The notes: generated by a model from the letters alone, not told the origin. A stretch of 64,000 bases of DNA from Candidatus Omnitrophota bacterium (GCA_023248155.1 JAHFFE010000003.1:108-64107); one strand, 5' to 3'; numbered from the stretch's first letter, positions 5,291 to 58,742 are shown. Program-made: numbers and translations.

Positions 5291-5299
5291 GAGGCAACC

Positions 5300-5815: not shown

Positions 5816-6377
5816 TCAGATTAAATCCAAATTCCCGGATGCCGTGATTGCCGCGCATCAGTATCGCGGCGATGACACGGTCACGATCCGCCCCGAATCG
5901 ATCGTTCGCGTGGCGCAAACGCTGCGCGATGATCCGGCATTTCAGATGAATCTGCTGATGGATCTGACCGCTGTGGATTATTCGAAATTCGCCCAGGAGC
6001 CGCAGGGCAAGGGCGGCCATATCAACGCCGGCATCGCCTTGAAACAGCCGTCCGATATTCCCGATGCTAATCCCTGGCCGGGACCGGCAACGCAGGCCCG
6101 TTTCGAAGTGGTCTATCATTTTGTCTCTCTTCCGTTGAAGCACCGTCTGCGCGTCAAGGTTCCCGTTGAAGAATCCAAGCCGGAAATCGATTCGATCTCC
6201 GCGTTGTGGGGCGGGGCCAACTGGTTTGAGCGCGAAGTCTGGGACATGTTCGGCATCCGGTTCACCGGCCATCCGAACCTGAAACGAATTTTGATGTACG
6301 CACAATTTGAGGGACATCCGCTCCGCAAAGATTATCCTGTGACTCAGCGCCAGCCGCTGATCGGCCCGAACAATTAA
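5793..6377 (+). CDS. nuoC: NADH-quinone oxidoreductase subunit C
   Basis: 30-kDa-subunit motifs ([33 protein letters not shown]). GTG start overlapping the nuoB end. Confidence 0.85.
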   Translation: MNVPLLSDQIKSKFPDAVIAAHQYRGDDTVTIRPESIVRVAQTLRDDPAFQMNLLMDLTAVDYSKFAQEPQGKGGHINAGIALKQPSDIPDANPWPGPATQARFEVVYHFVSLPLKHRLRVKVPVEESKPEIDSISALWGGANWFEREVWDMFGIRFTGHPNLKRILMYAQFEGHPLRKDYPVTQRQPLIGPNN

Positions 6378-6378
6378 A

Positions 6379-9581: not shown

Positions 9582-11155
9582 TGCCTAAGATTACAATCGA
9601 CGGAAAAACAATTGAAGTTGCAGCCGGCACGACGGTAATCCAGGCGGCGGAGCAAGTAGGCGTTTTTATTCCGCGCTACTGCTACCATCCCGGTTTGTCG
9701 GTGGCGGGTAACTGCCGCATCTGTTTGGTCGATGTCGAGAAGGCCCCCAAGCTGCAGATTGCCTGCAACACGCCGGTCGCCGAGGGTATGGTCGTCAACA
9801 CCACCAGCAAGAAAGTCACGGATGGCCAGCAGAGCGTTCTGGAATTTTTATTGGCCAATCATCCGCTCGACTGCCCGGTCTGCGACCAGTCCGGCGAGTG
9901 CGACCTCCAAAACTTTTATATGCAGTACGGCCGGTACGATCCGCGTTTCGAAGAGCAGAAGAACAAGAAACCGAAGGCGGTTCCGATCGGGCCTACTGTT
10001 ATGCTCGATGCCGAGCGCTGTGTATTATGTTCGCGCTGTGTCCGCTTTACCGACGAAATTACCAAGACCGGTGAGTTCGGCATCTTCAACCGTGGTGAAA
10101 AAGCCGAGATCGGTTTGTATCCCGGTAAAACACTCGATAACGATTATTCCGGCAATGTGGTCGATATCTGCCCGGTGGGCGCTTTAACCGACCGCGATTT
10201 CCGCTTTAAGGCGCGTGTCTGGTACCTGTCGACGGCGCCGTCGGTCTGCAACGGCTGTTCGCAGGGTTGTAACATTGATGTGCATTATGTACTCGACCGC
10301 CCGCATCTGGCCGATGGCGCGCGCGTAATGCGCTTAAAACCGCGCTACAACGCCGATGTCAACCAGTGGTGGATCTGCGACGAGGGCCGTTATGGTTTTA
10401 AGTCGGCCGATCAGGACCGCATCGAGAAAATCTCCTTAAAGGGCGCTGTGGCTGCCTGGGATATCGCGCTTACGCAAATCGCCACGGCCGTCACCAAATT
10501 AAAAGCAGCCAACCAACTTTCCGCGATGGCGGTTATTCCGTCGGCACAGTTAACGATCGAAGACCTTTATGCCGTCAAGAAATTAACGGATCAGCTTCCG
10601 GGCGTTGTTTGTACGGCGCAGGTTCCGCCGCTGCCGGGCAAGTCAGACGATCTTTTGATGAAGGCCGATAAAAACCCGAACAGCGCCGGCGTTGCGTTGC
10701 TCGAACTTGATAAAACTCCGGCCAGTTCCATTATTGAGGCGGCAGTTTCCGGGCAGATCAAGATTCTCTGGGTGATCGGGCAGGACCTTGTGAAATTATT
10801 TGGCGAGGAGAAGGTGAAACAGCTGGCGCAGAAAGTGGAGCTGTTCATCTATCAGGGGCCGAATACCAACAAAACTTCTTCGTACGCGCATGTTGTTTTA
10901 CCGGCGTCGCATTATCTGGAAAAAGACGGCACCTTTATCAATGTTCAGAATCGTGTTCAGCGGATTGGTAAAATTCTTCCGGCACTGGGCGATTCCAAGG
11001 CCGACTGGCAGATTGTTGCCGCGCTGGCCGCCAAGCTGGGGTTAACCGCCGGCTGGAAATCACTGCCGGAGCTTTTTGTTGCTGCCGCTGCTGAGGTGAA
11101 GCCGCTCAATGGACTGACCTATGAAAAAATTGGTCAGCAGGGCTTCACGGTATGA
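9581..11155 (+). CDS. nuoG: NADH-quinone oxidoreductase subunit G (short form, ~524 aa)
   Basis: N-terminal 2Fe-2S/4Fe-4S motifs (CYHPGLSVAGNCRICLV, HPLDCPVCDQSGECDLQ, CVLCSRCVRF). Start taken at MPKITIDGK (ATG overlapping the upstream stop). The C-terminal molybdopterin-like domain is truncated compared with ~700-900-aa NuoG. Confidence 0.85.
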   Translation: MPKITIDGKTIEVAAGTTVIQAAEQVGVFIPRYCYHPGLSVAGNCRICLVDVEKAPKLQIACNTPVAEGMVVNTTSKKVTDGQQSVLEFLLANHPLDCPVCDQSGECDLQNFYMQYGRYDPRFEEQKNKKPKAVPIGPTVMLDAERCVLCSRCVRFTDEITKTGEFGIFNRGEKAEIGLYPGKTLDNDYSGNVVDICPVGALTDRDFRFKARVWYLSTAPSVCNGCSQGCNIDVHYVLDRPHLADGARVMRLKPRYNADVNQWWICDEGRYGFKSADQDRIEKISLKGAVAAWDIALTQIATAVTKLKAANQLSAMAVIPSAQLTIEDLYAVKKLTDQLPGVVCTAQVPPLPGKSDDLLMKADKNPNSAGVALLELDKTPASSIIEAAVSGQIKILWVIGQDLVKLFGEEKVKQLAQKVELFIYQGPNTNKTSSYAHVVLPASHYLEKDGTFINVQNRVQRIGKILPALGDSKADWQIVAALAAKLGLTAGWKSLPELFVAAAAEVKPLNGLTYEKIGQQGFTV

Positions 11156-12231
11156 TCTGGGATATCGTTATTAAACTGGTGATCGCAGGGGCCGTTTTCT
11201 TTTTCGTGTTGAACCTGGCCGGCGCGCATACCTGGCTCGAGCGCAAGCAGTCGGCCGTGATGCAGGACCGCATCGGCGCCAATCGCGCCACGCTGTTCGG
11301 CCAGCGGCTGCTCGGCATTCCGCACTCGATTGCCGACGCCGTCAAGATGTTCACCAAAGAAGATTTTATTCCGGCCAATGCCGATCCATTCCTGCATACG
11401 CTGGCTCCATTCCTATCGGTATTTTTTGCAATGGTGGCGTTTGCCGGCATTCCGTTTGGCGATCATCTCATGCTGGGCGGGCGGATGATTGAATTGCAGG
11501 TGGCCAAGGTCGATGTGGCACTGCTCTATATTTTCGCGATGCTCTCGCTGGGCGTGTACGGTGTGATTCTGGCCGGCTATGCTTCGCGCAGCAACTACGC
11601 ACTGCTGGGTGCCATGCGGGCGTCAGCGCAGATGATCTCGTACGAAATCGCGCTGGGCGCCGGGATTGCCGGCATTGTAATGATTTACGGCACGCTCGAT
11701 CTGCAGGAAATGGTTCGCGCGCAGGGTGGGTTGGCCTGGGGTTTTCTGCCGAAATGGGGCATCTTTTTACAGCCGGTGGCGTTCTTTATTTTCCTGACCG
11801 CCGCGCTCGCTGAAACCAAGCGTACGCCGTTTGATCTTCCGGAAGGTGAGTCTGAAATCATCGGTTACTTTGTGGAATACAGCGGCATGAAATTCGGCAT
11901 GTTCTTTTTAACCGACTTCGTGGAAACCATTTTGGTGGCCTGCCTGGCGACGACGCTGTTCTTCGGCGGGTGGCAGATCCCGGGTCTCTCGGTCGCCGGG
12001 TTTAATTTCTTCGGACATCTGATCGCGGTTAACCCGGTTATTTACGCATTATTGGGTGTCATGAGCTTTACGCTGAAGGTGCTGATCTTCTGCTGGCTCT
12101 TTATGGCGATCCGCTGGACATTACCCCGGTTCCGCTATGATCAGTTAATGCGATTGGGCTGGCAGTACCTGTTTCCGATCGCGATCGCGAATGTGGTAAT
12201 AACCGGCCTTATTCTGGCCCTGGTAAAATAA
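11152..12231 (+). CDS. nuoH: NADH-quinone oxidoreductase subunit H
   Basis: Polytopic membrane protein with NuoH motifs (ERKQSAVMQDRIGANRA, YEIALG, PFDLPEGESEIIGYFVEYSGMKF). Confidence 0.9.
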   Translation: MIWDIVIKLVIAGAVFFFVLNLAGAHTWLERKQSAVMQDRIGANRATLFGQRLLGIPHSIADAVKMFTKEDFIPANADPFLHTLAPFLSVFFAMVAFAGIPFGDHLMLGGRMIELQVAKVDVALLYIFAMLSLGVYGVILAGYASRSNYALLGAMRASAQMISYEIALGAGIAGIVMIYGTLDLQEMVRAQGGLAWGFLPKWGIFLQPVAFFIFLTAALAETKRTPFDLPEGESEIIGYFVEYSGMKFGMFFLTDFVETILVACLATTLFFGGWQIPGLSVAGFNFFGHLIAVNPVIYALLGVMSFTLKVLIFCWLFMAIRWTLPRFRYDQLMRLGWQYLFPIAIANVVITGLILALVK

Positions 12232-12878
12232 TGGCAATCCGTAAGCGCGAGCTGACATTCTGGGAAAAATTATATTTGCCGCAGATCTTTTCCGGTTTGA
12301 AGCTGACGATGAAACATTTCTTCGTTAACCTCTTTATTCACATGGCGCACCGGCTCGGTTTAATGAAGAACAGTTCGGCGGCCGTGACGATTCAGTACCC
12401 CGAAGAACGGCGCTGGCTGGCTCCGCGTTTGCGCACGCGCCATCGGTTGATGCTGCGCGAAGAGGGGACCCCTCGCTGCGTGGGCTGCATGATGTGTGAA
12501 ACGATCTGCCCGGCCAAGTGTATTACCATCGTAGCGGGTGAGCACCCGGACCCGAATGTCGAAAAATACCCGACGCGGTTCGATATCGACCTCGGCAAGT
12601 GCGTTTACTGCGGTTATTGTGTTGAGGCTTGCCCGGAAGATGCGATCCGGATGGATACCCAAATCCTGGACATCGCCGCTTACTCCCGAGACGCGATGAA
12701 GCTCGATATGCACGAACTGCTCAACCCAACATTGCGCAAGCCGCTTAAAGAATGCGAGCTTAAATTTCCGCACAAGTGCGCCATCCATGACGGTAAGATA
12801 ACCGGCAGCTGGGATGCCGTCTATGGCAAAGGCCCCAAGAAGTCCAACCAGTTCGAGTCTGAAACACCCTCGCACTAA
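12231..12878 (+). CDS. nuoI: NADH-quinone oxidoreductase subunit I (with ~60-aa C-terminal extension)
   Basis: Two 4Fe-4S ferredoxin motifs (CVGCMMCETICP, CVYCGYCVEACP). Confidence 0.88.
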   Translation: MAIRKRELTFWEKLYLPQIFSGLKLTMKHFFVNLFIHMAHRLGLMKNSSAAVTIQYPEERRWLAPRLRTRHRLMLREEGTPRCVGCMMCETICPAKCITIVAGEHPDPNVEKYPTRFDIDLGKCVYCGYCVEACPEDAIRMDTQILDIAAYSRDAMKLDMHELLNPTLRKPLKECELKFPHKCAIHDGKITGSWDAVYGKGPKKSNQFESETPSH

Positions 12879-15381: not shown

Positions 15382-16818
15382 TTAGAAGATGTGCTGGATG
15401 GAGCGGATGGAAATCGCCAGGAACGGATACTGCCAAATTCCCAGCACGAAGATTCCAATCAGGCAGGCAACGATCGACATCTTCATTGTGGTACCGATTT
15501 TGATCGGAGTAGCATCAACCGGTTCGTCGGCATAAAGCGTTTGGACGACCCGCAAGTAGTAGTAGAGTGAAATTACCACAGCCACCGCACCAATAATTGC
15601 CAGCGTTAAATAACCCTGTGACAAGGCACTTAAGACCAGTAGGAACTTTCCGAAGAATCCCGCCATCGGCGGAACACCTGCCAGCGATAATAGACCGATG
15701 AACATCGCCGCCGCCAAGAACGGTGACCGCTTTGAAAGCCCCGCGAACGATTTAATTTCATCGGAACCGGTTTGCAATGTAACCGCTGTAATTACGAGGA
15801 ACAACACCAGGTTTGTGAACAAATAGCCGAGCAGGTAATAGGAAACCGCTGCCGAGCCGATATCGACGCCGGCAGTAATACCCATCAATAAATAACCGGC
15901 ATGGCCGATTGATGAATAAGCCATGAATCGTTTGATATTGGTTTGCGGGATCGCGCAAAGATTGCCGTACAAAATGGTGGCTCCGGATGCGAATACCAGC
16001 ACGCTGTTCCAGGCCATCGAGAACGGCAGGAACAGTTCCTGCAAAATCCGCAGCGCCACCAAAAATGCCAGCGCCTTCGAGCCGACCGACAAGAATGCGG
16101 TGACCGGCGTGGGTGCGCCCTGGTAAACATCGGGCGCCCAAATTTGGAACGGTACCACTGCTGCTTTAAACAAAATGCCCGCCAGTACCAGCAAGATGCC
16201 GAACACCAGGCCGGCCGGTAAAGTCTGCGCGCGCAGAGACATCGCGTGGATCGTTTCAAAGTGCAGGGAACCGGTGGTGCCGTAAATAAAGGCGATGCCG
16301 TACAAGAACAGCGCCGAAGAAAGCGAGCCGAGCACGAGGTACTTCAGGCCGCTCTCGAGCGATTGCAGATTGGTATGCAGATAAGAGACCAGCACATAGA
16401 GCGTAATGGCGACCAGTTCGAGCGAGATGAATAGCATCAGGAAGTTGGCCGATGACGCGGCCAGGAACATACCGAGCACGGCGATTAAGAACAGCAGATA
16501 AAATTCGCCATGCGCGCGGTCAACCGCTTTTCCGAATTCGCGCGCCAGCACCAGCGCCACGATACCGGACACCGTAAAAATGCCCTTAAAAAATAGCGCC
16601 ATCGTATCGACGCGGAACATGCCGCTGAATAGTTCATGCGAGCCGCCTTCTTTGGCCAGCAGAAATAAAATGGGGAACAGCGGCAGCATGCCGGCGATGG
16701 CGATTAAGCCCATCAGCGGATGTTTCTCTTCGCCCCATTTTAGGTCCAGCGCCAATAGCAGGAAGATGATGGTGCTGAGCCATACCTCGGGTAATATCCA
16801 GAAGAGGGTGTGCATCAT
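15382..16818 (-). CDS. nuoN: NADH-quinone oxidoreductase subunit N
   Basis: 478-aa antiporter-like subunit (FLMLFISLELVAITLYVLVSY ...). Confidence 0.88.
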   Translation of the reverse strand: MMHTLFWILPEVWLSTIIFLLLALDLKWGEEKHPLMGLIAIAGMLPLFPILFLLAKEGGSHELFSGMFRVDTMALFFKGIFTVSGIVALVLAREFGKAVDRAHGEFYLLFLIAVLGMFLAASSANFLMLFISLELVAITLYVLVSYLHTNLQSLESGLKYLVLGSLSSALFLYGIAFIYGTTGSLHFETIHAMSLRAQTLPAGLVFGILLVLAGILFKAAVVPFQIWAPDVYQGAPTPVTAFLSVGSKALAFLVALRILQELFLPFSMAWNSVLVFASGATILYGNLCAIPQTNIKRFMAYSSIGHAGYLLMGITAGVDIGSAAVSYYLLGYLFTNLVLFLVITAVTLQTGSDEIKSFAGLSKRSPFLAAAMFIGLLSLAGVPPMAGFFGKFLLVLSALSQGYLTLAIIGAVAVVISLYYYLRVVQTLYADEPVDATPIKIGTTMKMSIVACLIGIFVLGIWQYPFLAISIRSIQHIF

Positions 16819-18293
16819 TTTAAGTGCGCCAGAATATTCGGTGTTGCCGTGGAAATAATTTCAAGCAGCGAGCGCGGCCAGATACCAACGATCATGAGTG
16901 CCGCCAGTAAAATGAGGTACGGAATTTTTTCAAAGTTAGTGGCGTCTTTTAACTCGGCCCATTTCGGATTGAGCGGGCCGAAGAAAGCGGTACGTACCGT
17001 CCGCAGCATATAAAACGCGGTGGTGACGATGCCGAAGATGGCAGCCAGCGCCGACCAGCGATAAACATTCCACGACGCGAAGAAGATCAACAGTTCGGAA
17101 ACGAAGTTGGCGAAGCCAGGCAAACCGCTGGATGCCATTGCTGCCATGATGAACAGTGTGGAAACAAACGGAATCTGCCGTGCCAGACCGCCCCATTCGG
17201 CGGTGATGCGGGTATGCGTTTGATCGTAAATATGGCCGATTGCCGCGAAGGCCAGTGCCGTCATGATGCCGTGCGCGAACATCAGCAGTACCGCGCCGTT
17301 TAATCCGACCGGGTTCATGCAGGCCAGGCCCAGCAATACATAACCCATATGGCTGGATGACGAATAACCGATTGTGAATTTAATATCTTTCTGCGCCATT
17401 GCCACGAAACCGCCGTATAAAATGTTCATGATCGCGATGATCGCCACCCAGGGCATCCAGAATTGCGCGCCGGCGGGCAGTAACTGCATGGCGATGCGCA
17501 AAATGGCGTAGGAGCCCAGTTTCATCAGCACGCCGGCATGCAGCATGCTTACAGCCGATGGCGCTGATGCGTGGCCGAGCGGCGACCAGGAATGCAGAGG
17601 CCACATTGGCGCGATCACGCCGAAACCGAACAGCAGGAACGGGAATACCCAGACCTGCAGTTGAGTCGGAAGCGGATTCTGCATCAAGTACCGCTCTAAA
17701 AAGATCAGGTCAAAACTTTGCGCGCCGCTGGCCAGATAAACGATTGAAAGACCGATGAGCGCCAACACCGCGCCGGCGGTCAGGTAAAGCGTCAGCTTCA
17801 TCGTGGCATATTCTTTGTCTTTCGATCCCCAGATGCCGATCAACGGGAACATCGGGATCACAGCCATTTCGTAGAACAGGTAGAAAAAGAACAGGTCGAG
17901 TGAAGCGAAGACGCCGGCCACGCCGCCGATCAAGAGCAGGTAGAAGATGTAATATTCTTTGACGCGCTTCTGCACGCGGTAGGAAACCAGTACGCCGGTA
18001 AACGAGCAGAGCGAGTGCAGAAGAACAAGCACGACGCTGATGCCGTCGAGGCCCACCTGATAATTAATGCCGAGCGTGGGAATCCAACTGATTTTTTCCA
18101 GACACTGATAGCCGCCGAGCACTTTATCGTAATGGTAAACGCAATGCAGGGCGATCAACAGCGGCACCGCCGTAAATGCGGTGGCGATCCAGCGAACCCA
18201 CTTGTCGCGCCCCTGCGGAACCATCATTAAAAGGATGGCGCCGATGATCGGCGATAAAACGAGTGCGCTTACTGGACCCATCGGAATACCCAT
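16815..18293 (-). CDS. nuoM: NADH-quinone oxidoreductase subunit M
   Basis: ~490-aa antiporter-like subunit (LFFFYLFYEMAVIPMFPLIGIWGS ...). Exact start uncertain (18293 or 18281). Confidence 0.88.
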   Translation of the reverse strand: MGIPMGPVSALVLSPIIGAILLMMVPQGRDKWVRWIATAFTAVPLLIALHCVYHYDKVLGGYQCLEKISWIPTLGINYQVGLDGISVVLVLLHSLCSFTGVLVSYRVQKRVKEYYIFYLLLIGGVAGVFASLDLFFFYLFYEMAVIPMFPLIGIWGSKDKEYATMKLTLYLTAGAVLALIGLSIVYLASGAQSFDLIFLERYLMQNPLPTQLQVWVFPFLLFGFGVIAPMWPLHSWSPLGHASAPSAVSMLHAGVLMKLGSYAILRIAMQLLPAGAQFWMPWVAIIAIMNILYGGFVAMAQKDIKFTIGYSSSSHMGYVLLGLACMNPVGLNGAVLLMFAHGIMTALAFAAIGHIYDQTHTRITAEWGGLARQIPFVSTLFIMAAMASSGLPGFANFVSELLIFFASWNVYRWSALAAIFGIVTTAFYMLRTVRTAFFGPLNPKWAELKDATNFEKIPYLILLAALMIVGIWPRSLLEIISTATPNILAHLK

Positions 18294-20161
18294 AAGAAGA
18301 TGGCGGCAAAACCAATCCAGACCATAAACGCGTAGCTCTGAACGCGCCCGGTTTGAATGCGGCGAAGGACCAGCCCGGTGACACCGGTTATTTTAGCCAT
18401 GCCGTTGGCGAACAGGCCCATGATTACATATTTCTCGAACAGGCCGAGGAATACCGCGCCTTGCTGTTGAACGTTCTGGTTTAAGTAGCGGTAAATCTCG
18501 TCGATCCAATATTTACGCGTGAGCGGTGTGGCCAGCCAGGTCAGTTTCTTTTGCGCGGCGGCGGAGGGCTGCATTCCTTTGCTGTAAATCATGAATGCCA
18601 GCGCGAGGCCGCCAATGGCTACAATCGACGAGATGATCGCCACCGTCATGTTGAACTCGACGTGGATGCCGCCATGCGTCGTGTGATGCAAGAATTCCGG
18701 GAAGCCCATGAAACCGCCGAAGATCGTCGGGATCGTTAACAGCATTAAGGGAATGGTCATCGCCCAGGGTGATTCGTGAATGCCGCCATGATGTCCGTGG
18801 GACTCCTCGTGATGATGAACGCGGCTTTCACCGAGAAACGCGATGCTGAACAAGCGGCCCATATAAAAGGCGGTGAGTCCGGCAGTCAGCGTGCCGACGA
18901 GATAAAGAATTTTATTCTGATGAAATGCGACAGCCAGAATTTCGTCCTTGCTCCAGAAACCACTGAGAGGAAAAATTCCGCAGAGTGCCAGTGTTGCCAG
19001 CAGGAATGTCCAGCCGGTGATCGGCATTTTCTTGAGCAGGCCGCCCATTTTCCAGATGTCGTTGCTGTGCACCGCGTGAATCGCCGAACCGGCTCCCAAG
19101 AATAACAGCGCTTTAAAGAAGGCGTGTGTGGTCAGGTGATAGATGCCGGCTGTGTAACCGCCGAGACCAAGCGCCATTACCATATAACCTAGCTGGCTCA
19201 ATGTAGAGAAGGCGAGAATTCGTTTAATGTCGTTCTCGACGAGCGCCATACTCGCGGCGAACAGGGCAGTAAACCCGCCGATCCAGGCAACCATGATCAG
19301 CGCCTGAGGCGCTTCCCAGAATAAGAAATAAGTCCGTGCAATTAAATAAACGCCGGCAGCCACCATCGTGGCGGCATGGATTAATGCGGAAACCGGAGTG
19401 GGGCCTTCCATCGCGTCGGGCAGCCAGACATGCAACGGGAACTGCGCCGATTTACCGAGCACGCCGCAGAAAACCAGCGCCGCGGCAACGGAGAGCGTTG
19501 CACTGGAAATTAATCCGCCATGAACAAATTCCGGAATCCGATGGGCCAGTTCAACAAAGTTGAGTGTTTTTTCGTGTCCGCCGAGGCCGGAGATATTCCA
19601 GAGCGTTAAGATACCGAGTAAAAATCCGAAGTCGGCGATGCGGTTTACCAAAAATGCTTTTTTGCCGGCGGCGGCTGCGCTGGGTTTCTCGTACCAGTAA
19701 CCAATCAACAGATAAGAACTGGCGCCGACGAGTTCCCAGAAAATAAAGAGGCTGACGAAATTATTGGAAAGGACAATGCCGAGCATTGAGAAAGCAAACA
19801 GTGACAGGCAGGCGAAATAACGGGTGTAGCTGCGATCTTCCTTCATATAACCGGTGGAATAGATAAAGACCATTAATCCGACGCCGGTCACCACGAGACT
19901 CATCAAGATGGCCGGTTTATCGAGCAGAAGACCAAACTCCAGCAATAGGCCGGGCAGGTTAATCCAGTTGAGTGAACTTTGAATAATCTGCGGATGTTCG
20001 CCGCCGGCATGCATCAGCGCTTGCAGCGCGCAGACGAAGCTGACTACCAAGCCGCCGATGGCTAATGCGGTGCTGGCCGGTTTTGATTTACGCGCGCCCA
20101 GAACAATGGCCACACAGGCCAGCAGCGGCGCAAACAGTAAAATCCAGGGAAGGGCTACCAC
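18269..20161 (-). CDS. nuoL: NADH-quinone oxidoreductase subunit L
   Basis: ~630-aa antiporter-like subunit (SLFIFWELVGASSYLLIGYWY ...). Present start is probably the GTG at 20161-20159, giving MVALPWILLF. The ORF-track TTG at 20182 lies inside the terminal inverted repeat of the inserted element. Confidence 0.85.
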   Translation of the reverse strand: MVALPWILLFAPLLACVAIVLGARKSKPASTALAIGGLVVSFVCALQALMHAGGEHPQIIQSSLNWINLPGLLLEFGLLLDKPAILMSLVVTGVGLMVFIYSTGYMKEDRSYTRYFACLSLFAFSMLGIVLSNNFVSLFIFWELVGASSYLLIGYWYEKPSAAAAGKKAFLVNRIADFGFLLGILTLWNISGLGGHEKTLNFVELAHRIPEFVHGGLISSATLSVAAALVFCGVLGKSAQFPLHVWLPDAMEGPTPVSALIHAATMVAAGVYLIARTYFLFWEAPQALIMVAWIGGFTALFAASMALVENDIKRILAFSTLSQLGYMVMALGLGGYTAGIYHLTTHAFFKALLFLGAGSAIHAVHSNDIWKMGGLLKKMPITGWTFLLATLALCGIFPLSGFWSKDEILAVAFHQNKILYLVGTLTAGLTAFYMGRLFSIAFLGESRVHHHEESHGHHGGIHESPWAMTIPLMLLTIPTIFGGFMGFPEFLHHTTHGGIHVEFNMTVAIISSIVAIGGLALAFMIYSKGMQPSAAAQKKLTWLATPLTRKYWIDEIYRYLNQNVQQQGAVFLGLFEKYVIMGLFANGMAKITGVTGLVLRRIQTGRVQSYAFMVWIGFAAIFLWVFRWVQ

Positions 20162-20457
20162 CCCGCACCTTTGCCCGCACAAAGACTATGTTCTATGCGA
20201 CCTTTCAACTGTCCGAGTGCTTTTCCATAATATTTAAGCCTATCTTCTCGCAACGAGGCGTCTTTCTCCGACTTGTAAGCTTCATAATAGACTAGTTGGA
20301 TAGGTAAACGATGCTTGGTGGAAGCAGACATTCCGTTCTTATGTTCGTTTATTCTCTTTTGAATATCTGCGGTTCGTCCAATATATAATTTCCCATCCGC
20401 CTCGCTTTTAAGGATGTATACATAGAACATTTGCGGGCAAAGGTGCGGGGCTACCAT
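20155..20457 (-). CDS. GIY-YIG nuclease-domain protein (YhbQ/UPF0213-like)
   Basis: Sequence FYVYILKSEADGKLYIGRTADIQKRINEHKNG ... Y fits the GIY-YIG motif. The ORF-track start at 20457 is the ancestral nuoL ATG; the element-internal start is likely ATG at 20430 (MFYVYIL). The C-terminus runs into the left TIR. Confidence 0.7.
   Translation of the reverse strand: MVAPHLCPQMFYVYILKSEADGKLYIGRTADIQKRINEHKNGMSASTKHRLPIQLVYYEAYKSEKDASLREDRLKYYGKALGQLKGRIEHSLCAGKGAGW
20161..20179. repeat. left terminal inverted repeat of the GIY-YIG mini-element
   Basis: 19/19 reverse-complement match to 20432-20450. Confidence 0.7.
20432..20450. repeat. right terminal inverted repeat of the GIY-YIG mini-element
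   Basis: 19/19 reverse-complement match to 20161-20179. Confidence 0.7.
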
Positions 20458-20762
20458 TTCAGCGCGCGGACCTCATCGGCGTTAATCTTGCCGGTTTTGC
20501 GCGAGAGCAGCAGCGCGATCGCCAGACCGACGGTGACTTCAGCGGCGGCGACGATCATCACAAAGAAAACCATGATCTGTCCGGCGAGATCCCCCTGAAT
20601 ATAAGCGAACGAAACGAACGCCAGGTTGGCGGCCGAAAGCATTAATTCCAGGCTGAGCAGAACCAGAATTAAATTGCGGCGCGTAACTACGCCGACCAGT
20701 CCGATTGTGAACAGGATGATGCTCAAGCCCAGTAGCTGTTGGATAGTGACGATTTCAGACAT
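20451..20762 (-). CDS. nuoK: NADH-quinone oxidoreductase subunit K
   Basis: 103 aa with 3 TM helices (LSLELMLSAANLAFVSF ...). The stop TAG is formed by the right CTACCA copy. Confidence 0.88.
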   Translation of the reverse strand: MSEIVTIQQLLGLSIILFTIGLVGVVTRRNLILVLLSLELMLSAANLAFVSFAYIQGDLAGQIMVFFVMIVAAAEVTVGLAIALLLSRKTGKINADEVRALKW

Positions 20763-21259
20763 CAGAGTTTCTTCTTTGCAAGAACGATGGCGCCGATGAC
20801 GCCGACCAATAACAATATGGAAGCTACTTCAAACGGGAGCGCGTAGATGGTAAATAATTGTTCGCCGACGGCGCGCGTGGTGCCGGTGACGCCGGTCTGG
20901 ATATCGGACAGTTTCTCCGACTGGAATGTATTGATGACGCGGCCGGCCTGCGAGATAAAAAAGAGACCGAACAGTGCCGCTCCGATTAACAGCGCCGGCT
21001 TGCGTGAGCGCAATAATGTTTCCGGCGTGATATCGAGCAGCATCACCACGAACAAGAAGAGGATTAATACCGCGCCGGCATAAACCAGAATTTGGATGAC
21101 CGCGACGAAATAAGCGTTGAGCGCGACGAACAGGGCGGAGAGGGCGAACAGCGTAACGACAAGGCTCAAGATCGCGTAGACAGGATGACGCGCCAGCAGC
21201 ACGCCCAACGCGCCAAAGACCGCGATACCCGCGACCGTATAGAAGAAAAGAGGATCCAT
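20762..21259 (-). CDS. nuoJ: NADH-quinone oxidoreductase subunit J
   Basis: NuoJ-like TM protein. Start taken at MDPLFFYTVAGIAVFGAL (21259) rather than the ORF-track start at 21334. Confidence 0.8.
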   Translation of the reverse strand: MDPLFFYTVAGIAVFGALGVLLARHPVYAILSLVVTLFALSALFVALNAYFVAVIQILVYAGAVLILFLFVVMLLDITPETLLRSRKPALLIGAALFGLFFISQAGRVINTFQSEKLSDIQTGVTGTTRAVGEQLFTIYALPFEVASILLLVGVIGAIVLAKKKL

Positions 21260-21556
21260 TAAGTTGAATTTGAATGAGTAGAAGCGTAAAGGTTGTATTG
21301 TATCAAATGAGCAGATTTTTTGGCAAATATTCATACAGATTGGGTATACTTCCTCTATATGGGGAGAAATATGCGCATTTGGGTGCGTTTTTTATTTGGC
21401 CGAATAAGAAGCCGATTTCAAAACCCTTATTTCCGCTGCAAGGGCAAGGGCTGGGTTGCGCCTTTGTTCTCGCTCCTTGATGTACTGCAAGAGTACACCA
21501 TCGTCGCTCGGCCTCGGCTCACTCCAGCCGTTGTCCTTTCGCGGGGAAACCGGGTC

Positions 21557-51890: not shown

Positions 51891-52964
51891 ATGGCTGTTA
51901 CTGAAAAGCAGATTATGGATGCGCTCCGGCAGGTGAAAGATCCTGAGTTGGGCCGCGATGTGATTACGCTGGGCATGATCAAAGATTTAACCGTTTCCGG
52001 CGGCAAAGTATCGCTGACGCTTGAATTGACCACGCCGGCTTGTCCGGTGCGCGAAACATTCGAGCAGGATCTGAAAACCGCGCTGGCCGCGGTACCGGGT
52101 GTTACCGAGATCGAACTAAAAACGACGGCGCAGGTTCGCTCGGTCGCCGCGTTTGGTTCGCAATCGATCGCGGGCGTCAGTAATGTGATCGCGATTGCCA
52201 GCGGCAAGGGCGGCGTCGGAAAATCGACGGTCAGTGTGAATCTGGCGGTGGCGTTGGCGCGCGACGGCGCGCGCGTCGGGTTGATGGATGCCGACATCTA
52301 CGGGCCGAACATTCCGTTGATGATGGGACTGACCCAGCTTCCTGCGTTGAGCGGCGACAAAATTGTTCCGGCGGAGAACTTCGGTGTGAAAGTAATGTCG
52401 ATGGGATTTCTGGTAAAGCCGGATGAGGCGATTATCTGGCGCGGGCCGATGCTGCACGGCGCGATCAGTAAATTTTTAAAAGAGGTAGTCTGGGGCGAAC
52501 TCGATTATCTTTTGGTGGATCTTCCTCCGGGAACCGGAGATGTGCAGTTGTCACTGTCCCAGGTGATCGCGATGAGCGGCGCGCTGATTGTGACCACGCC
52601 TCAGGATGTGGCGCTGATGGATGTGCGCAAATCGATCACGATGTTTGAAAAGGTGAAGGTTCCTTTGCTGGGCGTCGTCGAGAATATGTCGTCGTTCATC
52701 TGCCCGCACTGCAACAAAGCTACCGATATTTTTGATAAGGGCGGCGGCGTGCGCGCAGCCGAACAGATGAAAATTCCGTTTCTGGGTGAAATTCCGCTGC
52801 TGCTGCAGGTAAGGGAAGGTTCCGACTCGGGGCATCCGGTGGTTTTGACCCATCCCGATTCGCCGGCCTCGCAGGCGTTCGTGCAAATTGCCCGCCGTCT
52901 GGCTGCCCGCGTCAGCGTATTGGCTGCTGCCGCGCCCGCTGCCGATCCCGTCTGGAAAACATAA
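51891..52964 (+). CDS. apbC: Fe-S cluster carrier ATPase Mrp/ApbC (with N-terminal DUF59 domain)
   Basis: IAIASGKGGVGKSTVSVNLAVALA ... CPHC. Confidence 0.85.
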   Translation: MAVTEKQIMDALRQVKDPELGRDVITLGMIKDLTVSGGKVSLTLELTTPACPVRETFEQDLKTALAAVPGVTEIELKTTAQVRSVAAFGSQSIAGVSNVIAIASGKGGVGKSTVSVNLAVALARDGARVGLMDADIYGPNIPLMMGLTQLPALSGDKIVPAENFGVKVMSMGFLVKPDEAIIWRGPMLHGAISKFLKEVVWGELDYLLVDLPPGTGDVQLSLSQVIAMSGALIVTTPQDVALMDVRKSITMFEKVKVPLLGVVENMSSFICPHCNKATDIFDKGGGVRAAEQMKIPFLGEIPLLLQVREGSDSGHPVVLTHPDSPASQAFVQIARRLAARVSVLAAAAPAADPVWKT

Positions 52965-52991: not shown

Positions 52992-53363
52992 ATGGATTCC
53001 GAGGAGTCAGTAAGGCAGGACGGCACCCGGCCCGTACTTCAGCCGGGACATATGATTGTGTATGTCGATACCGGCGGCACGGTTTGTCCGAAGAAAAGTT
53101 CTAAAATAATCTTTGAACGGTTTACGGCGCTGATTCGCGAACGGCATTTGTCCGACCGCATTCGTGTGATTGAGCGGGGTTGTTTCGGCCTCTGCAAGAT
53201 TGCCCCAAACGCCTATATTGAGCCGGACGAAATCTGGTATTCTCAGTTTCACCTGGAAGATGTTGATGAGATTGTCGAGAAGCATTTGATTGGGGGCGAG
53301 CCGGTTCTGCATTTGATAGAATATCCTAAACGGCGGGTTCCCCGCAAAAAACGAGGAGCGTAA
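52992..53363 (+). CDS. thioredoxin-like ferredoxin-fold protein, paralogous to the N-domain of the 38931 fusion but with only three Cys
   Basis: IVYVDTGGTVCPKK ... RGCFGLCKIAPNAYIEPDEIWYSQFHLEDVDEIVEKHL aligns with GSGCVDFCEQGANIMVYPDYKWYSHVTPADLDKIIETEL. Confidence 0.45.
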   Translation: MDSEESVRQDGTRPVLQPGHMIVYVDTGGTVCPKKSSKIIFERFTALIRERHLSDRIRVIERGCFGLCKIAPNAYIEPDEIWYSQFHLEDVDEIVEKHLIGGEPVLHLIEYPKRRVPRKKRGA

Positions 53364-53365
53364 AA

Positions 53366-53839
53366 GTGTCTGAATCATGCTGCGGTTCTGCTCATGGAGT
53401 TGAAGTAGGAAGTGTCGCCCCAGATTTTACCGTTAAGGATCAGGACGGAAATCCGGTCACGCTCTCAAGTTTCGCCGGCAAGAAAACCGTCGTATTGGCT
53501 TTCTATCCGTTTGACTGGAGCCCGGTCTGCACGGGTGAGAATTGCGCGATCAGCGAAGATCTGCCCAAGTTCGACGACAAGGACACGGTTGTGTTCGGCA
53601 TCAGCTGCGACTCGCATTTTTCGCACAAGGCCTGGAAAGAAAAGCTGGGATTGAAGCAGTCTCTGCTGAGCGACCAGAAGCGCGAAGTGGCCAAGAAGTA
53701 CGGCCTTTTTCTGGAAGATTTCAACTGCAGCAAGCGCGCGACGATTATCGTCGGCAAAGACGGGAAAGTGATCTTCAAGAAAGTCCAGGAGATCAAGGTA
53801 CCCCGGAGCAATCAGGAAATTCTCTCCGCGATCAAGTAA
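53366..53839 (+). CDS. peroxiredoxin (AhpC/TSA family, Bcp-like)
   Basis: VAPDFTVKDQDGNPVTLSSFAGKKTVVLAFYPFDWSPVCTGE. Confidence 0.8.
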   Translation: MSESCCGSAHGVEVGSVAPDFTVKDQDGNPVTLSSFAGKKTVVLAFYPFDWSPVCTGENCAISEDLPKFDDKDTVVFGISCDSHFSHKAWKEKLGLKQSLLSDQKREVAKKYGLFLEDFNCSKRATIIVGKDGKVIFKKVQEIKVPRSNQEILSAIK

Positions 53840-53842
53840 ACA

Positions 53843-56272
53843 ATGTCCGAGATTTTGTTCCGTCCAACGGAAGATCAGATTCTCGAGCAGGAGGTTCGCC
53901 GGCACGTCGCGGTAACCACCTGGGATAAGCTGATTTCCATGCTCGACCCGGTTTATAACTGGGGCCGCAGCAACTCCGTCTGGCCGCTGCAATTCGGTCT
54001 GGCCTGCTGTGCGATCGAAATGATCTGCACGGCGGCCAGCCGGTTTGACATCGCACGGTTCGGCGCGGAACTGTTTCGCGCCTCTCCGCGTCAGGCCGAT
54101 CTGATGATCGTCTCAGGGACCGTCACCAAGAAAATGGTCCCGATGATCGTCCGCCTCTACAATCAGATGCCGGAACCGAAGTATCTGATTTCGATGGGCG
54201 CCTGCGCCAGTGCCGGAGGTCCTTTCAAGGAAGGGTACAATGTCGTTTCCGGCATCGACAAGTTTTTGCCCGTCGATGTCTATATCCCGGGCTGCCCTCC
54301 GACGCCGCAGGCGTTGCTGAACGGTTTGATCACGCTGCAGGAAAAAATCCACGGACAAAAAATCTCGACGGCGCGCTGGTATTCGGAAGGCCCGGGGCAG
54401 GAAGTTCCGGTTCCTTTGCTGGGTCCCGATTTAATTGATACGCGCCGCAATCAGGAAATCAAAGAAATCTGCGCGCTTCCCGAACCGGCCAAGCCGGCCG
54501 TTCTTCCTTCCTATATAACGGCTCCCAAACTGACACCGACTGAGGCCGAGGGTGCATCTGCTGCGGCGGTCGCTTTGGCGGCGCGATTAAACAAGGCCGT
54601 GGGGGATGGCTCGGTAACGCTATCCGGCAGCGCTCTGCTGGTAACGCCCGCTTCATTGCAGGCTGTGGCCTCTTACTTGAAACTGCAGCCGGATCTGAAA
54701 TTAAATTATCTGACCAATCTGACCTGTGTCGATTATCAGGACTGTTTCGAGGTGGTTTATCATCTGCAGTCGTTGCCAGGCACCGGCGCTCCGTTGGCAT
54801 TGAAAGTACGCGCCGACAAAACCGACCCGCGTGTTCCGACGGTCATGGGCATATGGCCCGGCGCCGATTTTCAGGAGCGGGAAGTCTTCGATATGTTCGG
54901 CGTCCGTTTTGAAGGTCATCCGAATCTGAAACGAATCCTGATGTGGGATGGCTTTCATGGGTACCCTCTGCGCAAAGATTATCTTGAGGCTTACTATGAA
55001 GCCCCCGGCAAAATCTTCCCGAGCCGCTGGAAAGAAGGGCACCATCAGCGCGCCGAGGAAAAAGCCCGGTTCGGCGATAACTTAAAATATCCGAATGGTT
55101 TTGATCCGGCATTGTTCCAGCCGGCCAAGGAATCGTTCGCGGCGGGGACGCCGGCGGTTGCCGACGGCATCCGGACCGATGATCTGGTGATCAACCTGGG
55201 ACCGCAGCACCCGTCGACGCACGGCGTTTTCCGCATGAAGATCCGCGTGGACGGCGAACGAATCCTGGCGCTCGAGCCGGTCATGGGCTACATGCACCGC
55301 AACCATGAGAAGATCGGCGAGCGCAACAACTACCTGATGATTTTCCCGTATACCGACCGCCTCGACTACATTTGCTCAATGGGCAATAACTTCGGTTACG
55401 CGCTGGCCGTCGAGAAACTGTTGAATGTCAAGCCGACCGAGCGCGCCGAATATATCCGCGTGATCATGGCCGAGCTGACCCGCATCGTCAGTCATTTCTG
55501 GGCCGTTGGATTTTTATTGAACGACCTGGGTGCTTTTTTTACGCCGGCGCTGTACGCGATTGAAGAACGGGAATTGATACTCGATCTGTTTGAGATGGCC
55601 TCGGGTTCGCGCATGATGTGCAATTATTTCCGGTTTGGAGGCGTTGCGGCCGATCTGCCCGCGGAATTTTTGCCGATGGCCAAAGCACTGGTCAATGACC
55701 GCATCCCGAAGGCGATCGAGCTGATGGACAACTATCTCGCCAAAAATGAAATCTTACTGAATCGATGCCGCGGCGTCGGCGTTCTGCCGAAAGACGCGGC
55801 GATCGCTTATTCGGCCGCCGGTCCGGTACTGCGCGCTTCCGGTGTGTCGTATGATTTGCGCAAGGCCGATCCGTACTCGATCTATGACCGGTTTGATTTC
55901 GATGTTCCGACGGCGCAGGAGGGCGATGTTTACGCGCGCTACCGCGTCCGGATCGCCGAGATGTGGGAATCGCTCAAGATTTTACGCAAAGCGCTGGCCG
56001 AAATTCCGGCCGGTGAGATTCAGGCCGGAAAGAAATTGTGGAACATCCGAGTTCCGGCCGGCGAATCGTACGGCCGCGTCGAGAATCCAAAAGGCGAGCT
56101 GGGCTACTATATTGTTTCCGACGGCACCGATCATCCGTACCGTTACCATGTGCGCGCGCCGTCGTTCATCAACCTGACGGCACTCGAAAAAATGTGCAAG
56201 GGGCACCTGGTCGCTGATGTGGTGGCGATCCTCGGTTCCATCGACATTGTGCTCGGGGAGACCGACCGGTGA
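53843..56272 (+). CDS. nuoBCD: triple-fused NADH-quinone oxidoreductase subunits B, C and D
   Basis: 809-aa single ORF. NuoB segment: GLACCAIEM ... [11 protein letters not shown] ... PGCPPTPQ. NuoC segment: [16 protein letters not shown] ... [25 protein letters not shown]. NuoD segment: [15 protein letters not shown] ... ends [14 protein letters not shown], with no NiFe-hydrogenase Cys motifs. Confidence 0.85.
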
Positions 56273-56919
56273 AAATCTACGGCCTTGAGCTTTTGCGCGG
56301 CCTCGGCATCACGATGGGCCGGTTTATCGCCACCTATACGGTTGGGTTCAAGCGCACTTTTGTAAACCGCAACCGCGGTTCATTCCGCCAGAGCGCCTCG
56401 GAAAAAGGCGTTTTCACGGTTCAGTATCCCGAAGAACGGCTCAAGCCGCCCGAGCGGTTCCGCGTTCTTCCGGTTCTGATTTACGACGGGAAAAAGGGGG
56501 ATACGCGAACGCAGCAGGCCGAACGCTGCACCTCGTGCGGCATCTGCGCGAAAGTTTGTCCTCCGCAGTGCATCTGGATCGTGCAGGCCAAAGATGCCGC
56601 CGGTAAGGCAATTCCGAAAGCGGCTGAATTCTCAATCGATACCGATGTCTGCATGAACTGTGGTTTCTGCGCAGAGTTCTGTCCGTTCGACGCGATCAAG
56701 ATGGACCATGATTTTGAATTAAGCAACGGCGAGCGCCATCAATCCCACATCTTTGACATCAACAAACTGCATGTTTCCACCGAATATTATGCCGAGACAC
56801 ATCCGATCGCCTGGGCCGAAGAGCAGGCGCGCAAGAAAGCCGATGCCGAGAGAAAAGCCGCCGCTGCAGCAGCCGCTGCGGCCGCGGCCAAGAAAGCCGC
56901 CGAGACACCGCCGCAATGA
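56269..56919 (+). CDS. nuoI: NADH-quinone oxidoreductase subunit I (second copy, Ala/Lys-rich C-terminal tail)
   Basis: [15 protein letters not shown] ... [13 protein letters not shown]. The tail is [21 protein letters not shown]. Confidence 0.85.
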
Positions 56920-57278
56920 CAAATCAGCTGACCTACTGTTTTCTAGGAATTTTTCTGCTGGCCGCGCTGGTAGTTCCGCTGCTGCCGATTGTATTGGCGC
57001 GGTTTGTCGCGCCCAAGAAGCCGGGACTGACCAAGAACCAGGTTTACGAATGCGGCATGGAAACCGAAGGGGATACCTGGGTCCAGTTCCGCATGCATTA
57101 CTATCTGTTCGCAATTTTATTTGTCGTCTTTGATGTCGAGGCGCTCTTTCTGTTTCCGTGGGCGTTGGTTTTTCGCTGGGGCGGATGGACAGGTCTTGCG
57201 GCGATTACTGTGTTTGTCGGAATTTTGCTGGCCGGCCTGGTCTATGCCTGGCAGGAAAATGTTCTGGAGTGGGAATGA
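56916..57278 (+). CDS. nuoA: NADH-quinone oxidoreductase subunit A (second copy)
   Basis: 120 aa (YECGMETEGDTWVQFRMHYYLFAILFVVFDVEALFLFPW). Confidence 0.85.
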   Translation: MTNQLTYCFLGIFLLAALVVPLLPIVLARFVAPKKPGLTKNQVYECGMETEGDTWVQFRMHYYLFAILFVVFDVEALFLFPWALVFRWGGWTGLAAITVFVGILLAGLVYAWQENVLEWE

Positions 57279-58378
57279 TGCCTGACTTGACCTGGCTGAT
57301 GACGGTAATCCGCCTGCTGATTCCGGCGATAATCATTCTGGCGGTTGCTCCGGTGGGAATGATGTACCTGACCTGGCTCGAACGCAAAGTAATTGCCCGC
57401 ATCCAGGGCCGCGTCGGTCCGAATCGTGTCGGCCCCTATGGGTTGCTGCAGCCATTGGCCGATGGCGTTAAAATGCTGACCAAAGAAGATCTCATTCCGC
57501 GCGGCGCCGATGTACTGTGCCATTTTCTGGCGCCTATCCTGATTGTGGTGCCGGCGTTGTTTCTGTTTACTGTGCTGCCGATCGGCCCAACGCTGGTGGC
57601 TGCGCCGTTAACGACCGGGCTGCTTTTCTTCGTCGCGGTCGGATCGGTCGGAACACTGGCGATCTTTGCGGCGGGGTGGGGCTCGCGCAATAAATTCGCG
57701 CTGTTGGGCGCCACGCGTTCGGCCGCTCAACTGGCCGCCTATGAAGTGCCGCTCGTTTTAAGTCTTGCCGTGATTCCGTTGATGACCGGTTCTTTGAATA
57801 TGACCGAGATTGTTCAGGCCCAGCAGGCGAAATGGTTCGTATTCACACCATGGGGACTGACCGGATTCATCCTGATTTTAATTACGGGTCTGGCTGAAGT
57901 GAACCGCACGCCGTTCGATCTTCCCGAGGCCGAGTCGGAAATTATCGGCGGGTTCCATACCGAATACAGCGGCATGAAATTCGCGCTGTTTTATATGGCT
58001 GAATTTTTGGGTACGCTGGCGCTCGGCATGCTGGCCAGTGTTTTATTTTTGGGCGGCTGGCATGGCCCGTTTTTACCGGGGCCGGTCTGGCTGCTGCTCA
58101 AAACCTTTTCTATTATTTTCTTCGCGATCTGGGTGCGCGGCACCTGGCCGCGTTTTCGCGTGGATCATTTGATGGAATTTGCCTGGAAGGTGCTGCTGCC
58201 GCTGGCTCTGTCGAATTTATTGGGTGCGGCTTTTTGCGCGCTGAAGGGCGGGTGGATCGGCAATATTGTGGCGACCGCACTTCCAATAAGTGTTTTTCTG
58301 CTGACCACGCAGTTATGGCTGAAGCCGAGGCCCCGTCCGACGACCGCGTGGATTGAGACGAATTCTCAGAGTAATTGA
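57275..58378 (+). CDS. nuoH: NADH-quinone oxidoreductase subunit H (second copy)
   Basis: Start at MMPDLTW (ATGA overlap). Motifs ERKVIARIQGRVGPNRVGPYGLLQPLADG and PFDLPEAESEIIGGFHTEYSGMKF. Confidence 0.85.
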   Translation: MMPDLTWLMTVIRLLIPAIIILAVAPVGMMYLTWLERKVIARIQGRVGPNRVGPYGLLQPLADGVKMLTKEDLIPRGADVLCHFLAPILIVVPALFLFTVLPIGPTLVAAPLTTGLLFFVAVGSVGTLAIFAAGWGSRNKFALLGATRSAAQLAAYEVPLVLSLAVIPLMTGSLNMTEIVQAQQAKWFVFTPWGLTGFILILITGLAEVNRTPFDLPEAESEIIGGFHTEYSGMKFALFYMAEFLGTLALGMLASVLFLGGWHGPFLPGPVWLLLKTFSIIFFAIWVRGTWPRFRVDHLMEFAWKVLLPLALSNLLGAAFCALKGGWIGNIVATALPISVFLLTTQLWLKPRPRPTTAWIETNSQSN

Positions 58379-58430
58379 CAATCCGGCGCAATTTTAGGAT
58401 AGTAGTACAAATACGAGGAGGAATTAGAGA

Positions 58431-58742
58431 ATGGCTTATGTGATCGCGGCCAAATGTTTGGGAGAACAGTACGCGCAGTGCGTCGAAGTTTGTCCCGTTG
58501 ACTGCATCTATCCGGGTGATTACAAGGGCGAGACCTTCATGGTCATCGATCCCGAGATTTGCATCACCTGCGGCGCCTGCTTGCCGGTCTGCCCGGTCGG
58601 TGCCATCGTTGAAAGCGAAGATTTTGATCCGGAATACGCGAAGGTCAACAAGGATCTGTCTCCTGAGTATAAGGGTCACGCCAAAGTGACTCCCCGCCCG
58701 AGCAACGATCCTCCTCGGAAGCCGGGCAACAAGCTCGTTTAA
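58431..58742 (+). CDS. 4Fe-4S ferredoxin
   Basis: 103 aa (CVEVCPVDCIY ... CITCGACLPVCPVGAI). A strong GAGGAGG RBS lies upstream. Confidence 0.8.
   Translation: MAYVIAAKCLGEQYAQCVEVCPVDCIYPGDYKGETFMVIDPEICITCGACLPVCPVGAIVESEDFDPEYAKVNKDLSPEYKGHAKVTPRPSNDPPRKPGNKLV

Follow-up and report, generated by a model that had tools for sequence, protein, structure and literature searches.

A second, partial complex I gene cluster with a triple nuoBCD fusion in a Candidatus Omnitrophota bacterium: a putative electron-input half without the NADH module

Gene content of cluster 2 and the NuoBCD fusion

The stretch of DNA analysed here, 64,000 nucleotides from a Candidatus Omnitrophota bacterium (GCA_023248155.1, JAHFFE010000003.1:108-64107; hereafter the window), carries a second, partial set of complex I (nuo) genes at positions 53,843 to 58,378, referred to as cluster 2, besides an NADH-linked set, referred to as cluster 1. 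Cluster 2 most likely encodes, as one operon, that half of a second complex I which takes up electrons and reduces quinone, without the NADH module. Its genes were typed by the table of open reading frames (ORFs) and by Pfam and NCBIfam profile searches. The profile hidden Markov models return NuoB/C/D, NuoI, NuoA and NuoH, so the second, partial set claimed by a reading made from the sequence alone (the sequence-only reading) is genuine. The four genes are as follows.

53843..56272, + strand: nuoBCD, a single ORF of 809 aa (PF01058, PF00329, PF00346)
56269..56919, + strand: nuoI2, 216 aa, 2x[4Fe-4S], Fer4 families; GTG start overlapping the nuoBCD stop
56916..57278, + strand: nuoA2, 120 aa (PF00507, E 1e-34); ATGA overlap with nuoI2
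57275..58378, + strand: nuoH2, 367 aa (PF00146, E 6e-114); ATGA overlap with nuoA2

Each of the three junctions is a 4-nt start/stop overlap (GTGA at 56269-56272, ATGA at 56916-56919, and ATGA at 57275-57278); the translational coupling of nuoI, nuoA, and nuoH behind the fusion, as first proposed, is thus visible in the sequence. The start of NuoH2 is best put at the ATG at 57275 rather than at the GTG further upstream at 57158.

The product of nuoBCD is built from three domains and a linker.

residues ~1-185: NuoB part (Oxidored_q6, PF01058, at residues 55-164, E 9e-28)
residues ~186-240: B-C linker, Ala/Pro-rich and of variable length among 12 fusions
residues ~240-400: NuoC part (Complex1_30kDa, PF00329, at residues 267-381, E 1e-39)
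residues ~440-809: NuoD part (Complex1_49kDa, PF00346, E 4e-94), preceded by a conserved C-D junction

In the alignment of the 12 fusions, the four cysteines of the N2 cluster (C55, C56, C121, and C151) and the quinone-site residues H460 (QHPSTH460G) and Y509 (DRLDY509) are invariant. The NuoD part ends in GETDR, of which GE-DR is invariant, and Cys ligands are absent from this C-terminus. The [NiFe] Cys ligands of the group 4 hydrogenases (Ech/Mbh/Hyc) were found at neither the N-terminal nor the C-terminal motif positions of NuoD, and the NuoD part exceeds the cutoff of the NuoD model NF004739 (436 versus 360 bits); it is therefore a true NuoD and no hydrogenase subunit, as had been claimed. 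Similarly, the best PDB sequence matches of NuoBCD are NuoCD, Nqo4, and NdhH, the Mbh and Mbs chains reaching ~190-200 bits compared with ~340 for Nqo4.

The fusion itself, also claimed at the outset, is real, since 119 of the 120 top database matches are single proteins of 771-922 aa with all three Pfam domains. The nearest matches (78% identity) are labelled Candidatus Omnitrophica. A frameshift or an assembly artefact as the origin of the fusion is ruled out by this shared architecture, by the independent assemblies in which it occurs, and by the conserved ligands. In one related locus, L173 (L-numbers denote the relative loci or contigs compared with the window), the fusion gene was split by the gene caller; this is a gene-calling error, as the frame is open through B, C, and D. 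The best NCBIfam model of NuoBCD, NF009808 'subunit B/C/D' (PRK13292), describes the same three-domain fusion, and its cutoff of 1156 is far above the 688.5 bits obtained. NuoBCD is hence not a member of this equivalog but a divergent branch, or perhaps a fusion that arose independently. An AlphaFold2 model of the fusion, built from the 12-sequence alignment, was unusable (mean predicted local distance difference test score, pLDDT, 44.9).

The remaining subunits of cluster 2 keep the features expected for function. NuoI2 contains two CxxCxxCxxxCP motifs and scores below the cutoff of the NuoI model TIGR01971 (88.7 versus 113 bits), which marks it as a divergent NuoI. Among 145 orthologs of the lineage, NuoI carries a C-terminal extension of ~60-80 aa with a Lys/Ala/Glu-rich end, on average net positive. 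The tail of NuoI2 (window 56750-56919) is unrelated to that of the canonical NuoI1. The motifs YECGME and FDVE are readable in the translation of NuoA2. NuoH2 exceeds the cutoff of the NuoH model NF004741 (342 versus 305 bits) and aligns over its full length to E. coli NuoH and T. thermophilus Nqo8; in this alignment, the RTPFDLPEAE loop and the residues corresponding to Nqo8 E163 and E213 are retained. The acidic residues of the E-channel expected for coupling are kept in both NuoH2 and NuoA2. The cofactor ligands of cluster 2, for N2 as well as for N6a/b, and its coupling residues are intact and under purifying selection.

Two further groups of nuo genes lie in the window.

4937..12878, + strand: cluster 1, nuoA, B, C, D, EF (fused), G, H, and I (Pfam); NADH-linked
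15382..21334, - strand: nuoJ, K, (GIY-YIG insert), L, M, and N (Pfam); convergent with nuoA-I

Both groups are present as first read, but the set called 'canonical' is atypical, as nuoE and nuoF are fused, nuoJ-N is convergent on the minus strand, and a GIY-YIG gene lies between nuoK and nuoL. The nuoJKLMN genes are the sole antiporter-arm set in the window, situated 32 kb from cluster 2, with one NuoM and a NuoL of ~628-637 aa without a lateral-helix insertion. The intervening 32 kb contain transketolase, succinate dehydrogenase, glycerol-3-phosphate, and other genes, and no further nuo genes were found there. The fused NuoE+NuoF (602 aa, 7773-9581) recurs in the relatives L087 and L089, but L090, which is more distant, has separate NuoE and NuoF.

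Lineage membership and operon architectures

The paralogs of clusters 1 and 2 are 41% (A), 46% (B), 38% (C), 35% (D), 38% (H), and 31% (I) identical. In neighbour-joining trees built for the NuoD domain and for NuoH, copy 2 groups with the loci of a non-canonical lineage and copy 1 with the canonical EFG-linked copies, the split being recovered in 50 of 50 bootstraps in each tree. NuoD2 and NuoH2 fall on the same side of the split as L131, a 2M-type operon, and the Omnitrophota-like group was recovered in 49 of 50 bootstraps. A recent duplication is ruled out by the paralog identities of 31-46% together with this split, in agreement with the divergence pointed out in the sequence-only reading. 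Furthermore, matching genes in loci from Planctomycetota (Isosphaeraceae), Chloroflexota, Sericytochromatia, Acidobacteriota, and Verrucomicrobiota share 52-83% identity with the parts of cluster 2. Between the window and one relative, the proteins of cluster 2 are 68-79% identical and those of cluster 1 and nuoJ-N 58-78% identical, which suggests that the sets are similarly constrained. In a search for closer relatives, NuoL and Mrp matches of 95-97% were obtained, and no BCD match exceeded 78%; the 4.5-kb contigs concerned stop short of the cluster.

A GTDB search returned 594 matches, and the fusion state was classified for 165 loci. A true B-C-D fusion is present in 38 of these, a separate B with fused C-D in 113, and an unfused arrangement in 9. 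In the Omnitrophota-like contigs (70-78% identity; at least 9, L001-3, L006, L007, L093, L095, L133, and L173), the gene string is Mrp-(TusA)-2Fe ferredoxin-Prx-BCD-I-A-H-FdxA. In a sister group (67-72% identity), which includes one contig of 3.03 Mb, the order is BCD-I-HEPN-like gene, followed by fused A and H. In about a dozen loci, drawn from the Omnitrophota-like, L004, and L097 groups, a 10-kb range around cluster 2 contained no J, K, or antiporter gene. The fused NuoA+NuoH (493 aa, L004 13813-15294) is a second type of fusion in the lineage.

In the Isosphaeraceae, cultured species included, the operon reads BCD-I-x-A-H-J-K with one NuoN-like antiporter, followed by a HEPN-like gene. The antiporter (573-648 aa) is 42% identical to NuoN and 24-27% identical to NuoM and NuoL. 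As these loci (L009 10001-19325, L012, L077, L080, and L084) have a single antiporter gene, NuoL and NuoM must either come from another site or be lacking. The small HEPN-like protein lies inside or at the end of nuo clusters of the lineage (L004 13350-13865; L009 18921-19325 and other Isosphaeraceae); the proteins of the two groups are 27-34% identical, and the window contains none.

In most Chloroflexota, B, fused CD, and I are followed by Mrp, sometimes directly upstream of a canonical nuoA-G... operon. The unfused sister L131 carries a complete A-B-C-D-I-H-J-K-L-M-M-N operon, in which NuoL (691 aa) has 15+12 extra lateral-helix residues (~27 aa) compared with the NuoL of the window. Such a lateral-helix insertion in NuoL, of ~26 aa, is the published signature of 2M complex I (PMC9040806). 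Two unfused Verrucomicrobiota loci read A-B-C-D-I, and nuoI is thus next to nuoD also in the unfused relatives of the lineage.

The B-C-D-I-A-H order is a conserved hallmark of an old lineage found in Omnitrophota, Isosphaeraceae, Chloroflexota, and Sericytochromatia. The departure from the A-N order claimed by the earlier reading therefore stands, but not as an idiosyncrasy of this genome, because it is lineage-wide and the D-I adjacency extends to the unfused relatives. Published cases point in the same direction. PMC7117926, citing Chadwick 2018, describes for the 2M complex I of Chloroflexi a nuoBCDI group with fused nuoCD apart from a nuoLM1M2N operon, and a clade-3 2M cluster of Nitrospira lacks nuoH, E, and F (PMC6606698). 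Both the gene order and the partial content of cluster 2 can hence be regarded as traits of the lineage, given the architectures of its relatives and the published 2M and detached Q-module cases. The likeness to a 'minimal core' of ferredoxin- or F420-dependent relatives, also proposed earlier, is loose, since Fpo, NDH-1, Ech, and Mbh carry antiporter-like subunits. Rather than as a minimal enzyme, cluster 2 is better understood as one part of an operon that has been split, because the complete operons of the lineage (L131 and Isosphaeraceae) carry antiporters. Compared across these gene orders, the operon of the lineage has been broken up repeatedly, and the Omnitrophota form is one more way of cutting it.

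The triple fusion (NCBIfam NF009808 and JGI annotations), enzymes without NuoEFG, 2M enzymes, and detached Q-module genes are already known. No description of a BCD-I-A-H operon, of such an operon beside a canonical set with a separate J-N unit, or of the Isosphaeraceae BCD-I-A-H-J-K-N form was found in the literature, and the Omnitrophota literature yielded nothing specific on cluster 2. Complex I is usually seen as one co-inherited block, and this lineage cuts it after I, after H, and after N and differs in its fusions as well (B+C+D and A+H). Such natural 'sub-complexes' bear on which parts must co-evolve and on what feeds a complex I without EFG.

Proposed function, electron donor, and pumping arm

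Downstream of nuoH2, a ferredoxin gene is followed by genes for a NirA-family reductase, ThiO, a second peroxiredoxin, and then lipoate ligase.

58431..58742, + strand: FdxA-type (7Fe-type) ferredoxin (NF045490 FdxA, E 3e-23), 53 nt past nuoH2

No nuoE/F/G or nuoJ-N gene was found downstream of cluster 2 in the window or within 10 kb in relatives, whose next 8-10 kb carry pyruvate dehydrogenase genes. In the window, nuoE, nuoF, and nuoG are confined to cluster 1. The earlier claim that neither NuoE/F/G nor antiporter subunits follow the cluster is borne out, as the downstream profile hits belong to other families and the relatives agree past the window end. In the Omnitrophota relatives, FdxA occupies the same position and is 74-92% identical, which makes it the most conserved gene of the neighbourhood.

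In the proposed mechanism, the fused NuoB-C-D and NuoI would form the Q module, and NuoA and NuoH would form the membrane 'heel'. With the N module absent, the clusters of NuoI are expected to be exposed to a soluble carrier. A low-potential ferredoxin-type carrier, for which FdxA is the prime candidate, would exchange electrons with these clusters; the electrons would then pass to N2 in the NuoB part and on to quinone in the pocket formed by NuoD, NuoB, and NuoH. The reverse direction, in which quinol and proton-motive force would drive the reduction of ferredoxin, is equally possible. The E-channel of NuoH and NuoA would couple this chemistry to antiporter-like subunits encoded outside the operon. 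Ferredoxin is a candidate partner of the enzyme, with a direction that is not deducible from sequence; the link is drawn from the missing NuoEFG, the conserved FdxA directly downstream, and the use of ferredoxin by relatives without EFG, for which it has been proposed or shown as partner (PMC6606698; PMC11238625). The conserved net-basic tail of NuoI could serve docking.

Several known systems share parts of this arrangement. Among described systems, 2M complex I and the separately encoded nuoB-nuoCD-nuoI genes of Chloroflexi come closest (Chadwick et al. 2018, ISME J, via PMC7117926, PMC6606698, and PMC9040806). As in cluster 2, NuoEFG is absent, the Q-module genes are detached from those of the membrane arm, and nuoI lies beside nuoD; NuoD2 and NuoH2 also cluster with L131 and the Chloroflexota B/CD-I loci, away from the canonical copies. 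A ferredoxin-linked role has been proposed for the 2M/Chloroflexi enzyme. Unlike in those relatives, B is here fused to CD too, and nuoA and nuoH travel with the Q module as BCD-I-A-H; the second NuoM and the lengthened NuoL of the 2M form do not occur in the window. Complex I-like enzymes with 11 subunits (PMC3144371; Desulfitobacterium, PMC11238625) likewise combine the Q module with NuoH and NuoA and do without NuoEFG, their candidate donor being ferredoxin and their genes forming contiguous nuoABCDHIJKLMN operons (Moparthi & Hagerhall 2011, PMC3144371; PMC11238625). In contrast, the operon described here holds 6 of the 11 subunits, as four genes.

Cyanobacterial NDH-1 consists of an NDH-1M core with exchangeable NdhD/NdhF modules, uses ferredoxin as donor, lacks NuoEFG, and is encoded by scattered genes. 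It provides a precedent for one core joining alternative modules, and the genes of the Isosphaeraceae BCD-I-A-H-J-K-N form correspond to those for the conserved core subunits of NDH-1M. However, the scores against the NdhH (374 versus a cutoff of 583 bits) and NdhI (54 versus 302 bits) models separate cluster 2 from NDH-1, the exchange point would lie at H|J and not at N|M, and no NdhL-O/S-type subunits were found among the ORFs scanned around the cluster. The F420H2 dehydrogenase models likewise stay below their cutoffs (FpoD 347/600, FpoH 280/475, and FpoI 42/180), and no FpoF-like gene was found near cluster 2. Incomplete nuo clusters beside a complete one are known as well. Streptomyces carries a second, partial nuo set. 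The clade-3 2M cluster of Nitrospira (PMC6606698) is likewise a partial set besides a complete one and implies trans partners or sharing. In both cases other subunits are missing than here, and neither is described as BCD-I-A-H.

The question that follows is which pumping arm the enzyme uses. The nuoJ-N set of the window belongs by descent to cluster 1, because relatives show the same convergent layout and because it has one NuoM and no helix insertion. A stand-alone nuoJKLMN convergent with an EFG-containing cluster occurs in four relatives (54-66% NuoL identity). Pairwise comparison of NuoJ, NuoK, and NuoN of the window with the two lineages gives 83 versus 50 bits for NuoK and 263 versus ~240 bits for NuoN, a weak agreement compared with which synteny and the NuoL helix are more informative. 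The arm of cluster 2 is tentatively placed in a matching J-N set elsewhere in the genome, with a probability of about 0.45. This leaning follows from relatives whose remaining genes sit at another locus and from the size of the window, a few percent of a genome.

Several observations weigh against this picture of a ferredoxin-linked head with an arm of its own. A J-N set of the lineage is absent from the 64-kb window and from ~45 kb of each of two relatives. A sigma70-like site (TTGACA-17-GATAGT, 58375-58403) overlaps the nuoH2 stop just 5' of fdxA, so that FdxA may have its own promoter and may also be transcribed alone; apart from this site, scans for promoters and terminators revealed no clear limits of the operon. 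In addition, ferredoxins serve many partners, and the peroxiredoxins, ThiO, and NirA-like neighbours point to no single pathway, the NirA-like protein being poorly conserved in relatives (33-39% identity).

The strongest alternative, which is somewhat less probable, is that two heads use one arm, the single nuoJKLMN serving both the NADH-linked and the EFG-less head in competition or alternation. Both head clusters end at the same module boundary (after H/I), nuoJKLMN forms its own transcription unit on the opposite strand, and the dozen or so loci without a J, K, or antiporter gene within 10 kb of cluster 2 fit this arrangement. Moreover, the three-locus layout of ~55 kb is kept in the same order and orientation in the two relatives with known coordinates (L002/L087 and L089/L173), and cluster 2 and J-N share one contig in three more (98, 104, and 140 kb). 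In mitochondrial complex I, too, a boundary between assembly modules lies roughly at the H|J gene break. The common end point of the two heads makes the layout compatible with a shared arm, but conserved synteny alone would explain it equally well. On the other hand, every genome examined has J-N next to cluster 1, with an arm of the ordinary type, H2/A2 share only 38-41% identity with H1/A1, and hybrid enzymes of complex I are described as rare (PMC4453560). Convergence of NuoH2 towards NuoH1 shows no clear excess (11 versus 12 sites, and 8 versus 3 in a stricter class), and the window covers only 2-3% of a genome. If the arm were shared, one NuoJKLMN pump would join two anciently diverged, interchangeable heads, one NADH-linked and one ferredoxin-linked, that each contribute a NuoH/NuoA heel. 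This would make H|J a module boundary of complex I, with a single pump whose electron donor or direction of electron flow the cell could change; the question at stake is whether a pump arm can serve heads that are only ~40% identical.

Considerably less probable is a stand-alone, non-pumping membrane ferredoxin:quinone oxidoreductase made of NuoBCD, I, A, and H alone. Such an enzyme would suit a compact, coupled four-gene unit that is conserved alone in several groups, as well as the fusion of NuoA and NuoH in one of them. The complete lineage operon of L131, however, carries antiporter-like subunits, as does, to our knowledge, every characterised relative (complex I, NDH-1, Fpo, Ech, and Mbh), and the retained acidic E-channel residues of NuoH2 and NuoA2 argue for coupling. 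Finally, a decaying remnant of a complete second nuo operon, or an artefactual fusion, would account for the incomplete gene set and for the fusion gene split by one relative's gene caller, but is hardly credible in view of the intact ORFs, the conserved ligands, the cross-genome identity of 68-79%, the 119 fused matches among 120, and the erroneous gene call in L173.

Flanking genes and minor features of the window

The gene string of cluster 2 extends further upstream, where nuoBCD is preceded, at gaps of 3-28 nt, by genes for an alcohol-dehydrogenase-family protein, an Mrp/ApbC protein, a 2Fe-2S ferredoxin homolog, and a peroxiredoxin. The last three are as follows.

51891..52964, + strand: Mrp/ApbC (NUBPL-family) Fe-S cluster carrier (PF10609, E 2e-105; NF008669, 347.5 with a cutoff of 348)
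52992..53363, + strand: thioredoxin-like [2Fe-2S] ferredoxin homolog (NCBIfam fdxn_Clost, E 1e-14), with a putative role
53366..53839, + strand: peroxiredoxin (AhpC/TSA, BCP-like; PF00578, E 6e-39), ending 3 nt ahead of nuoBCD

In the Omnitrophota relatives the Mrp gene lies upstream of BCD, and in dozens of Chloroflexota loci (e.g. L016-L045) it immediately follows nuoI. Members of the NUBPL family are required for the insertion of Fe-S clusters into mitochondrial complex I. The occurrence of Mrp/ApbC next to Q-module genes in two phyla points to a dedicated role in assembly, and from its position the protein may act as an assembly factor for the Q module of the lineage. Together with the adjacent FdxA and the charged NuoI tail, the link to an Mrp/NUBPL-type carrier offers leads on how the enzyme is assembled and on its electron donor, a question of long standing.

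In the thioredoxin-like ferredoxin homolog, D26, C32, C64, and C68 are invariant among 7 orthologs, that is, three Cys and one Asp instead of four Cys. The peroxiredoxin keeps its position before nuoBCD in relatives. In L173 (14344-15156), the ferredoxin homolog and the peroxiredoxin form one in-frame fusion, suggesting that the two work jointly.

Between nuoK and nuoL, an insertion of ~287 bp (20161-20447, minus strand) is missing from L171, which is 88-91% identical at the nucleotide level. The insertion is bounded by 19-bp perfect terminal inverted repeats (CCCCGCACCTTTGCCCGCA / TGCGGGCAAAGGTGCGGGG), and the target TGGTAGCCC is duplicated. It encodes the 100-aa GIY-YIG ORF, which uses the original nuoL ATG; the start of nuoL has moved to a GTG within the right-hand copy of the target, which keeps the chain of overlapping starts and stops intact. 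The spacer between the convergent nuoA-I and nuoJ-N units has a different content in every relative, and in the window (14722-15374) it holds a Gp49/HigB-like and helix-turn-helix (HigA-like) gene pair together with a DUF6804 gene.

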